From an uncultured Bacillales bacterium (lineage in GTDB: Bacteria > Bacillota_I > Bacilli_A > RF39 > UBA660): a DNA stretch of 64,000 nucleotides. Both the position numbers and the translations under genes were made by a program. Under the pieces are notes generated by a model that saw nothing but the letters and a program-made list of their open reading frames with translations, ran no database searches and had not been told where the DNA came from. The stretch covers positions 6,201 through 70,200 of the forward strand of contig CAMOSD010000001.1 in the NCBI GenBank assembly GCA_946624595.1, written 5' to 3'. This document shows positions 11,928 through 12,419 of the stretch, in pieces (the first letter of the stretch is position 1; the number at the start of each line of letters is the position of its first letter).

Positions 11928-12419
11928 ATGAAAATACTATCATTAGATTTATCTACTAAATCATCTGGTTGGTGCATAGGATAGGATGGAAAATTTGAAA
12001 AATCTGGATGCGTTGCGGCGGCCTCTAAAAATGTAAATGCACGAATTATTAAAATTCGTGATGAAATATCTAAAATAATTAAAGAAAATAATATAGATAA
12101 AATTATTATGTAGTAGGTGCGGCCTGAGTACAATTCTCATACTAATAAAGTATTAATGTGGTTACAGGCTGCGATTGTTCTCGCCGCTTATGAAATTAAT
12201 CCAAAAATTTAGTGTGAATTTATTGGAGCTACAGAATGGCGGGCCGCATTAAAAATAAAACAGGGACGCGGCATAAAGAGAGAAATGCTCAAACCGCAAG
12301 ATATAAAATACGTAGAAGATAAATACTCAATTAAAGTCCAAAATGATGACTAGGCTGATGCAATTTGCATATTTGATGCCTATTGGGAAAAAAATGATAA
12401 TGAAATTAATTGGGAATAA
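11928..12419 (+). CDS. RuvC-like Holliday junction resolvase, 5 in-frame TAG (including a TAG-TAG doublet)
   Basis: MKILSLDLSTKSSGWCIG-x-DGKF...IDKIIM-x-x-VRPEY...VLMWLQAAIVLAA...QNDD-x-ADAICIFDAYW aligns to the RuvC catalytic motifs (first Asp in LDLS, hhhhEQ strand, DxxDA). x is an in-frame TAG. Only plus-strand gene inside the minus-strand late module. Confidence 0.65.

Follow-up and report, generated by a model that had tools for sequence, protein, structure and literature searches.

Which amino acid is encoded by TAG in a phage whose genes carry this codon in frame by the hundred? The question is raised by 64,000 nucleotides of DNA deposited under an uncultured Bacillales bacterium (GenBank assembly GCA_946624595.1, contig CAMOSD010000001.1, positions 6,201 to 70,200), the whole of which is called the window here. 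In the window 193 in-frame TAG codons are spread over 22 of the 51 genes, and the open reading frames (ORFs) of at least 100 amino acids add up to 72.6 kb if TAG is taken as a sense codon vs. 52.5 kb with the standard code. The genes end with TAA (42 of 51) or TGA (9 of 51). The point from which the meaning of TAG can best be approached is a gene for a RuvC-like Holliday-junction resolvase (11928..12419), where a TAG-TAG doublet falls on the active site. The comparisons described below make it very probable that in the clade of the window TAG stands for glutamate while TAA and TGA remain stops. Decoding would probably be achieved by a phage tRNA(CUA) charged by glutamyl-tRNA synthetase (GluRS) and left unamidated by the amidotransferase GatCAB.

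The TAG doublet of the RuvC-like resolvase

The resolvase gene lies on the plus strand, starts with the ATG at 11928, which is preceded by the ribosome-binding site GAAAGGAG, and ends with the TAA at 12417-12419; five of its 163 codons are TAG. A large protein collection contained 609 homologues, many of them with a precomputed match to PF02075 (RuvC). The window protein itself remained below the cut-off of this family (22.2 bits) whether TAG was replaced by Glu (21.0 bits), by Gln (18.8 bits) or by X (15.9 bits), and a phmmer search of the PDB with this single sequence gave no match. A profile made of 20 family members matched the RuvC proteins of E. coli (1HJR, E = 1.4e-7) and P. aeruginosa (6LW3, 1e-6). 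In the alignment with 1HJR the family motif 'kiiiEEvr' is paired with 'FAIE66Q67VF', and 'NDDeADA' with 'N..ADAADA', where D138 and D141 are located. The columns D7, aa62, D141 and D144 of the window protein thus align with the catalytic residues D7, E66, D138 and D141 of E. coli RuvC. Because 'iiEEvr' aligns with 'AIE66Q67VF', the first TAG of the doublet (12111-12113, aa62; the second is 12114-12116, aa63) occupies the column of the catalytic Glu66, and by this alignment the Asp-Glu-Asp-Asp tetrad is complete only if the TAG at aa62 is read as Glu. A sequence-only reading of the window had placed the doublet on the catalytic Glu and had tentatively favored Glu over Gln as the meaning of TAG; the family profile confirms the first claim, and the codon counts given below support the second. 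In its length and its tetrad columns the resolvase is like the known RuvC proteins, from which it differs by its divergence, reflected in the sub-threshold PF02075 score, and by an additional conserved Glu at aa142.

For a codon alignment, 80 viral loci with a resolvase homologue were fetched, of which 72 distinct sequences were aligned. At aa62, 62 sequences had GAA or GAG (GAR) and ten had TAG; neither CAA or CAG (CAR) nor any other codon was present. The neighboring aa63 column was less uniform (42 GAR, 11 TAG, one CAA, six Asp, seven Lys, two Ser and three Thr). The TAG at aa142 (12351-12353) is situated between the catalytic Asp141 and Asp144, in the motif NDD-x-ADA, and its column consisted of 63 GAR and eight TAG codons with no CAR and nothing else, even though the search pattern used for this site (NDD[QE]ADA) would admit Gln codons. 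Since aa142 is paired with A139 of E. coli RuvC, the invariant Glu at this site is specific to the resolvase family of the window. The remaining two TAG codons are in more variable columns: aa19 (11982-11984) had 17 GAR, 13 TAG, five CAA, 11 Lys, eight Asp, seven Asn and others, and aa95 (12210-12212) had 29 GAR, eight TAG, two CAG, 14 Lys, eight Thr and others. TAG was never found where the family has an invariant Gln (WLQ, KQGRG).

The alternative that has to be considered first is that TAG encodes glutamine, as in genetic code 15, and that the alignments with Glu reflect tolerated Glu-to-Gln replacements. The resolvase columns are hard to fit to it. The E66Q variant of RuvC has been reported to be inactive in cleavage, and TAG is present in columns that otherwise contain only Glu, the catalytic one included, in at least ten distinct genomes, with CAA or CAG at aa62 in 0 of 72. 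Glutamine has precedent on its side: in the account of Borges et al., TAG to Gln and TGA to Trp are the only reassignments in phages whose code differs from that of the host, and for crAss-like phages code 15 is described as validated by proteomics (Peters et al., PMC9523058).

Precedent is also visible in the databases. Deposited proteins of close relatives (P0001-P0004 and others) have Gln at the TAG sites, e.g. 'IVMQQV' in P0001; the DNA of the nearest contigs has TAG-TAG where these proteins show Gln, so the most likely source of these Gln residues is gene prediction with code 15. The public protein predictions for the clade are probably mistranslated, even at the catalytic site of the resolvase.

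A second, divergent RuvC-like gene, with five TAG codons ('IVMEEILPXDV ... DVNDDISDAICLG'), was noticed in the relative that is closest to the window at the DnaE end (L083:19065-19547). It is located downstream of nrdD, nrdG and dUTPase genes, and within the conserved motif 'DSDYRG-E' the dUTPase gene has a TAG at a site that is Glu in a relative.

Residues aligned with TAG in the whole window

All proteins of the window, with TAG translated as X, were compared by tblastn with 192 related loci, and the codon classes of the window were tabulated against the aligned residues and codons. The residues found opposite the TAG codons were Glu (40.6%), Lys (9.8%), Asp (7.7%) and Gln (6.4%), and in 12.1% the aligned codon was itself TAG. 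In the same comparison true Glu codons were aligned with Glu in 58.1% and with Gln in 4.6%, whereas true Gln codons were aligned with Gln in 49.8% and with Glu in 9.8%. An empirical substitution matrix derived from these alignments was used to score 87 TAG positions. The log-likelihood (LL) values were -204.2 for Glu, -244.6 for Gln, -260.2 for Lys and -264.7 for Asp; Glu was ahead of Gln by approximately 40 log units and was chosen in 2000 of 2000 bootstrap replicates, a result opposed to the reading of TAG as Gln. The preference was present in different parts of the window. Sixty of the positions were in late genes of the minus strand (LL -146.8 for Glu vs. -166.6 for Gln), mostly in two giant genes (12865..17910, 1,681 codons, 24 TAG; 18217..27621, 3,134 codons, 93 TAG) that contain most of the TAG codons of the window. 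The genes of the plus strand gave -50.0 for Glu vs. -64.9 for Gln, and the resolvase alone also favored Glu.

The distribution of TAG over conserved columns points in the same direction. When the cells of columns with at least 95% of one residue were counted for 48 recoded loci, TAG occupied 81 of 1471 cells in Glu columns (5.5%) and one of 1020 cells in Gln columns (0.1%), figures that are difficult to reconcile with Gln as the meaning of the codon. The corresponding numbers were 0 of 1528 for Lys and 4 of 1816 for Asp.

Several individual columns are as uniform as those of the resolvase. On the minus strand, the homologues at aa76 of gene 8776..9090 (8863-8865) had Glu in 26 and TAG in eight cases and nothing else, and those at aa52 of gene 11002..11238 (11083-11085) had Glu in 30, TAG in eight and Met in three. 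At aa19 of the fibre-like gene 5708..8758 (8702-8704, minus strand; 'SK-TAG-IP'), where the paralogue 1315..2550 has SDEIP, the column consisted of eight Glu, four TAG and two Asp. On the plus strand, two TAG codons of the gene for an AAA_24 ATPase (49786..50772) were opposite 26 Glu and four TAG with nothing else (aa47, 49924-49926) and opposite 30 Glu, three TAG and one Leu (aa126, 50161-50163). The RecJ-like gene (54361..56148, plus strand) has TAG codons between 55318 and 56118 in four strongly Glu columns; Glu made up 42 of 45 sense residues at aa320, 47 of 49 at aa469, 33 of 39 at aa583 and 44 of 49 at aa586. In the comparison of RecJ with the PDB one TAG was opposite Gln in a single bacterial RecJ, and the phage homologues have Glu at that site; one sequence of this kind does not decide the matter.

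Domain profiles were in agreement with these columns in most cases. The gain in Pfam score of Glu over Gln was +2.2 bits for RuvC, +4.6 for AAA_24 (PF13479, 125.1 vs. 120.5 bits), +3.8 for NUMOD1 and +1.3 for GH25; it was -1.2 for GIY-YIG. The NUMOD1 helix-turn-helix belongs to a GIY-YIG homing endonuclease (43645..44454, plus strand) with a TAG at aa236 (44350-44352), and its scores (53.0 bits with Glu, 49.2 with Gln) were obtained with the four TAG codons of the protein replaced together. Comparison of the GH25 lysin with PDB structures was uninformative, the TAG columns being variable (Glu/Lys/His and Leu/Ser/Ala/Val). The tabulation of residues at TAG positions of conserved domains, which the sequence-only reading had proposed as a way to decide between Gln and Glu, therefore came out in favor of Glu, and its three further examples, the alignment of SDEIP with SK-TAG-IP in the fibre proteins, F-TAG-KG of the AAA_24 ATPase and the TAG at 44350 of the homing endonuclease, all proved consistent with Glu in the columns and scores given above.

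Amino acid composition gave a similar picture. Codons GAR account for 5.97% of the TAG-containing genes vs. 7.41% of the TAG-free genes, and the share of Glu in the former rises to 7.72% once TAG is added. If TAG is counted as Gln instead, Gln in the TAG-containing genes almost doubles, from 3.17% to 6.05%.

Related lineages with other codes

The meaning of TAG was also inferred separately for each locus, by comparing 3,334 ORFs with one another. In the window's clade the result was Glu for approximately 40 loci, and the LL(E)-LL(Q) difference rose to +29. Six loci (L027, L029, L031, L054, L056 and L139), derived from five contigs of 28-141 kb such as IMGVR_UViG_3300045988_152410 and 3300013936_000013, gave Gln, with differences between -8 and -37. 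The TAG codons of these loci are in Gln columns, e.g. 'NGNFIFXEIKNYL' (X denoting TAG; Gln in 33 of 34), 'AGQDFIXVSSTIY' (Gln 29) and 'NLSPLEXILVNRG' (Gln 41). That the same procedure yields Gln for this sister lineage, whose resolvase is approximately 47% and whose DnaE approximately 64% identical to that of the window, shows that it can separate Gln from Glu, and the lineage serves as a positive control. A relative that truly uses TAG as Gln lends the Gln alternative some credit for the window as well; taken by their alignments, however, the two lineages appear to be one phage family with two meanings of TAG, Glu and Gln. When the suppressor of the Gln lineage was looked for, the 10 kb that precede its baseplate gene contained no tRNA.

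In a third group of relatives (L042-L053, L061 and L072), TGA is found where the resolvase has an invariant Trp ('SSG*A', 'LM*LQ' and 'EIN*E'; genes at approximately 10001-10507 of each locus). Judged by these positions, they are members of the same family recoded from TGA to Trp.

Suppressor tRNA genes in close relatives

Around the resolvase and DnaE genes of 160 loci there was no tRNA beyond one unrelated tRNA-Met. The search was extended leftward by way of a 9,996 bp contig (L001), which carries the leftmost gene of the window and extends past its left end, to contig IMGVR_UViG_3300021399_000007 (133,873 bp), from which locus L162 is taken. This contig encodes a tRNA(CUA) at L162:2904-2977 (Rfam tRNA, 64.7 bits), in a tRNA cluster adjoining a gene for a sigma-70-type factor. 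With the sigma factor as query, 13 further loci of the clade with tRNA clusters were found, and eight distinct tRNA(CUA) sequences were collected. In four loci the order of genes is tRNA-Glu(UUC), tRNA-Glu(CUC), tRNA(CUA), tRNA-Met, with tRNA-Gln(UUG) elsewhere in the cluster.

The tRNA(CUA) copies have Glu-type features. Their D-arm region is 16-17 nt long (GTC-AAGYGGTTTAA-GAC; 20 nt in one offset parse) and, where the parse is in register, contains U11-A24 as do the phage tRNA-Glu genes; the D-arm region of the clade's tRNA-Gln genes is 15 nt in five of six and 16 nt in the sixth. For the 1-72 pair most copies have G-C or C-G and two have G.U, in contrast to A-U or U-A in the tRNA-Gln genes; seven of the eight copies carry A73 as discriminator, where tRNA-Gln has G73. 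The suppressors of L162, L164, L165, L169 and L171 share G2.U71 with the phage tRNA-Glu(CUC), and those of L164 and L165 have the same 4-nt variable loop (AGAC) as tRNA-Glu(UUC). A single change, at position 36, converts the anticodon CUC to CUA. A search with the D-arm motif GTCAAGYGGTT(N)AAGAC, which is present in the clade's tRNA(CUA) copies as such or in close variants, returned 120 bacterial stretches, mostly from Bacillota; of the 115 tRNA calls among them 106 were tRNA-Glu, four His and four Gln. The CUA tRNA of L178, a phage further removed from the window, resembles tRNA-Gln. The suppressor of the clade, by these features, has a tRNA-Glu-type rather than a tRNA-Gln-type body. The origin of the suppressor, the other check that the sequence-only reading had suggested, thus agrees with the alignments, and the lack of the weak A-U/U-A 1-72 pair, of G73 and of the short D-loop of tRNA-Gln is a further argument against TAG as Gln.

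The cluster of L162 contains a second unusual tRNA gene, which was also seen in L163. It is a well-formed tRNA(UUA) (L162:4270-4342, Rfam 51.3 bits, 33% GC) with a U1.U72 mismatch, G2.U71, G73 and a Glu-like D-arm, and it was present in one of approximately 14 clade genomes sampled. Such a tRNA would read TAA and, by wobble, TAG. In the alignments of relatives' ORFs to the window there was no systematic in-frame TAA; TAA is the main stop codon, and none was detected in frame.

In the same cluster a tRNA-Ala(UGC)-like gene (L162:5148-5704) is apparently interrupted, just past the anticodon loop, by approximately 450 bp of inserted DNA with a small ORF (5208-5650). Paralogous ORFs (2456-2854 and approximately 3470-3870) separate other tRNA genes from one another, and the cluster may have been colonized by introns or homing elements.

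A possible route to glutamate insertion

From these elements the following pathway can be envisaged. TAG would be decoded by the phage-encoded tRNA(CUA), the gene of which is in the cluster by the sigma-factor gene in close relatives, outside the window. As the suppressor keeps a tRNA-Glu body, the GluRS of the host would load it with Glu. Bacterial GatCAB recognizes the U1-A72 pair and the D-loop, and rejects tRNA-Glu for an extra base in the D-loop (PMC2811023); a suppressor with no U1-A72 pair and with an enlarged D-loop would be passed over, and its Glu would stay unconverted. The resulting Glu-tRNA(CUA) would compete with release factor 1 (RF1) at TAG. Proteins with TAG codons in their genes, among them the resolvase with TAG at its catalytic Glu, would be full-length and active only once TAG is decoded, and since the genes of the resolvase, the lysin and the virion need such decoding, their production could wait for the expression of the tRNA cluster. 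A role of recoding in timing has been proposed for code-15 phages (Borges et al. 10.1101/2021.08.26.457843). For the window's clade we infer this role, as well as the charging enzyme and the escape from amidation, from the features described above.

The presence of tRNA-Glu(CUC) among the phage genes implies that the host must already accept C34, and non-discriminating GluRS enzymes tolerate variation at position 36. Class I aminoacyl-tRNA synthetase motifs of the GluRS/GlnRS type were absent from the 3,334 ORFs in a regular-expression screen, which covered partial genomes, in the reference genome all but approximately 33 kb, was blind to the class II PylRS and did not include a search for pyl genes.

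Weighing the alternatives

A number of observations weigh against the assignment of TAG to Glu. The case for it is wholly comparative. No tRNA was found within the window by ARAGORN or Rfam, the suppressor being seen only in relatives. Identity over the whole tRNA, determined against 672 bacterial tRNAs, was 0.67-0.75 with tRNA-Glu, which came out top or near the top, but tRNAs for Asp and Thr were similar and the measure discriminates weakly, as it also did in pairwise comparisons inside the phage clusters; Gln was never among the top five. The GluRS of E. coli depends on C36, which makes the charging of a CUA anticodon by the host GluRS an assumption. In the giant genes (12865-27621) Lys fills 17% of the cells aligned with TAG vs. 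5.9% for ordinary Glu codons, an approximately threefold excess. Among 20 TAG columns conserved to 80% or more, five are Lys columns, with a Lys share of at least 80% in the relatives. A few TAG positions have a Gln majority among their homologues, and between very close genomes approximately five independent exchanges of TAG with CAG/CAA were counted vs. approximately four with GAR. Finally, the authors who described the related phAss-1 group assigned TAG to Gln, using TerL alignments and tRNAscan-SE (PMC10607447).

The excess of Lys in the giant genes may be due to many young TAG codons at variable charged sites. It nevertheless raises the possibility that TAG encodes some other residue, i.e. 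Lys, Asp or a non-canonical one such as pyrrolysine, the last being the default label given by ARAGORN to a CUA anticodon. In favor of Lys is that, besides the conserved columns just mentioned, it is the second commonest residue opposite TAG. The log-likelihoods of Lys and Asp are far below that of Glu, their conserved columns are nearly or completely free of TAG, Lys is impossible at positions of catalytic carboxylates, and the synthetase screen of the partial genomes, blind though it is to PylRS and pyl genes, was negative. An amino acid other than Glu or Gln is thus an extremely improbable meaning of TAG in this clade.

The exchanges of TAG with CAG, few in number and ambiguous, are compatible with TAG as Glu because CAG to TAG is a transition and the replacement of Gln by Glu is conservative. 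They are also what is expected from a residual Gln reading, and this leads to the possibility that TAG is ambiguous and gives a mixture of Glu and Gln, either by partial amidation of Glu-tRNA(CUA) by GatCAB or by insertion of Gln through wobble by tRNA(UUA). Sites with Gln-majority homologues would fit such a mixture, as would the Gln-like acceptor features (U1.U72 and G73) of the tRNA(UUA) in the cluster of L162 and the fact that the indirect pathway links Glu and Gln on the tRNA (PMC2811023). A sizeable Gln fraction would, however, not be expected to leave conserved Gln columns with TAG in one of 1020 cells, nor should TAG be tolerated at catalytic Glu columns; moreover, tRNA(UUA) was found in a single genome, and TAA is still the main stop. 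Ambiguous decoding is therefore improbable, somewhat less so than a uniform reading of TAG as Gln, which, in spite of the precedents, the phAss-1 annotation, the sister lineage and the exchanges in close pairs, we regard as very improbable in view of the catalytic column, the conserved columns, the likelihoods and the suppressor.

Glutamate is the reading that we retain for TAG. In its wider form, we consider it likely that the whole clade uses a new phage code, with TAG as Glu, while the sister lineage uses TAG as Gln and other relatives TGA as Trp, and that the new code depends on a suppressor derived from tRNA-Glu and proof against GatCAB.

The window, its relatives and other genes

The window's clade consists of phages of roughly 130-145 kb that are distant kin of Enterococcus phages EF1 and VRE9 and of SPbeta-like phages. 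A megablast comparison of 20 kb of the window with 50,697 deposited phage records gave no match, and no contigs encoding the rightmost gene of the window were on record. By DnaE, the nearest cultured relatives (approximately 39% identity) are Enterococcus phages VRE9 and EF1, Geobacillus phage GR1 and SPbeta-like phages; on account of these relatives the host of the phage is likely to belong to the Bacillota, and the clade with TAG as Glu probably infects members of this phylum. The genomes are mosaic: the DnaE of the window (59427-62042) is 94-96% identical to those of IMGVR_UViG_3300021399_000006 and 3300001520_000016 and 64% identical to that of 3300021399_000007, while the latter contig shares 94% identity with the window in its resolvase and 98% with L001 in its baseplate gene.

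TAG codons are carried by structural genes and by the genes of the lysin, the RuvC-like resolvase, the RecJ-like nuclease, the AAA_24 ATPase and the homing endonucleases. The highest density in the window is that of a GIY-YIG protein with an N-terminal coiled coil (46997-47953), with 22 TAG in 318 codons (7%), nearly all of them in the coiled-coil half. A block on the plus strand (28343..36936), presumably of early genes, has no TAG in any of its listed genes and can be expressed with the standard code; several replication genes are also without TAG.

Two observations concern this TAG-free region. In the part at 29892-36113 there are genes for a Thg1-like tRNA-His guanylyltransferase (PF04446, 104 bits), an RNA ligase (PF09414), an AAA_33 kinase and a calcineurin-like phosphoesterase. 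Together they have the appearance of a module for the repair or maturation of tRNA, of possible importance to a phage dependent on its own tRNAs. An 827-aa protein encoded at 30771-33254, likewise TAG-free, gave matches to the shoulder domain of the major vault protein (PF11978, 75.9 bits) and to a vault repeat (PF17795), which is unusual in a phage.

Comparison with known recoding systems

Recoding of a stop codon by a phage suppressor tRNA is already known; what is with high probability new for phages, judging from the comparisons made here, is Glu as the meaning of TAG. A literature search for TAG to Glu in phages found no report; in the literature covered, TAG recoding in phages is always described as Gln. 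If the assignment is true, it is the first reassignment of a stop codon to Glu outside peritrich ciliates and the third amino acid outcome of phage recoding, and it contradicts the rule that phages differing from the code of their hosts use only TAG to Gln and TGA to Trp. This rule has been explained by the readiness with which bacterial GlnRS accepts amber suppressors. The outcome with Glu would point to GluRS and an escape from GatCAB, in hosts that possibly make Gln-tRNA indirectly, and suggests that the aminoacyl-tRNA synthetase content of the host shapes the code that a phage can adopt. It would also mean that, inside a single phage family, a small number of tRNA identity nucleotides can turn the meaning of a reassigned stop codon from Gln to Glu or back. 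The sister lineages with Gln and Glu would then constitute a natural experiment, and the tRNA(CUA) a natural Glu-inserting amber suppressor.

There are practical consequences as well. Table 15 is offered for TAG recoding by prodigal-gv and Pharokka-gv. Gene callers confined to code 15 would, if TAG is Glu, mistranslate approximately 1.7% of the residues in the recoded genes of the clade, catalytic ones included, and annotations, structure predictions and active-site assignments would be systematically wrong by Glu-to-Gln changes.

The closest parallel in the arrangement of the genome is with the code-15 phages (crAss-like, Lak and others). In these phages, as in the window's clade, the in-frame TAG codons cluster in genes for virion structure and lysis and in some of those for DNA processing. 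Shared features are a TAG-free, presumably early block, a tRNA(CUA), seen here in the relatives, the absence of a detected dedicated aminoacyl-tRNA synthetase and a host that presumably uses the standard code. Unlike the code-15 phages, the window's clade has TAG in conserved Glu columns and a suppressor with the body of tRNA-Glu, not of tRNA-Gln, whereas its sister lineage in the same family appears to be a true user of code 15.

By description, which is the only basis on which they were compared, the phAss-1 phages (proposed 'Phassvirus') are similar to the clade in genome size, DnaE-type polymerase and kinship to EF1. They are described as human-gut phages of 133-138 kb with a DnaE-type polymerase, related to Enterococcus phage EF1, with TAG in approximately 40 ORFs and two or three tRNA(CUA) among 28-36 tRNA genes (PMC10607447). 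The indirect pathway of Gln-tRNA formation, with a non-discriminating GluRS and GatCAB, normally serves tRNA-Gln (PMC2811023); the suppressor of the window's clade would be charged by the host GluRS and escape GatCAB.

A system with the same meaning of the codon is the nuclear code of peritrich ciliates (NCBI table 30), in which TAA and TAG are both translated as Glu; among the standard code tables we know of no other with TAG as Glu, and in this one TAA is reassigned too. The phage clade resembles it in reading TAG as Glu, as deduced here by comparison. It differs in that TAA, which is Glu in the ciliates, ends 42 of 51 genes in the window and was not found in frame, and in that the ciliate code belongs to a eukaryotic nucleus, whereas the code of the phage would be overlaid on that of a host with the standard code.

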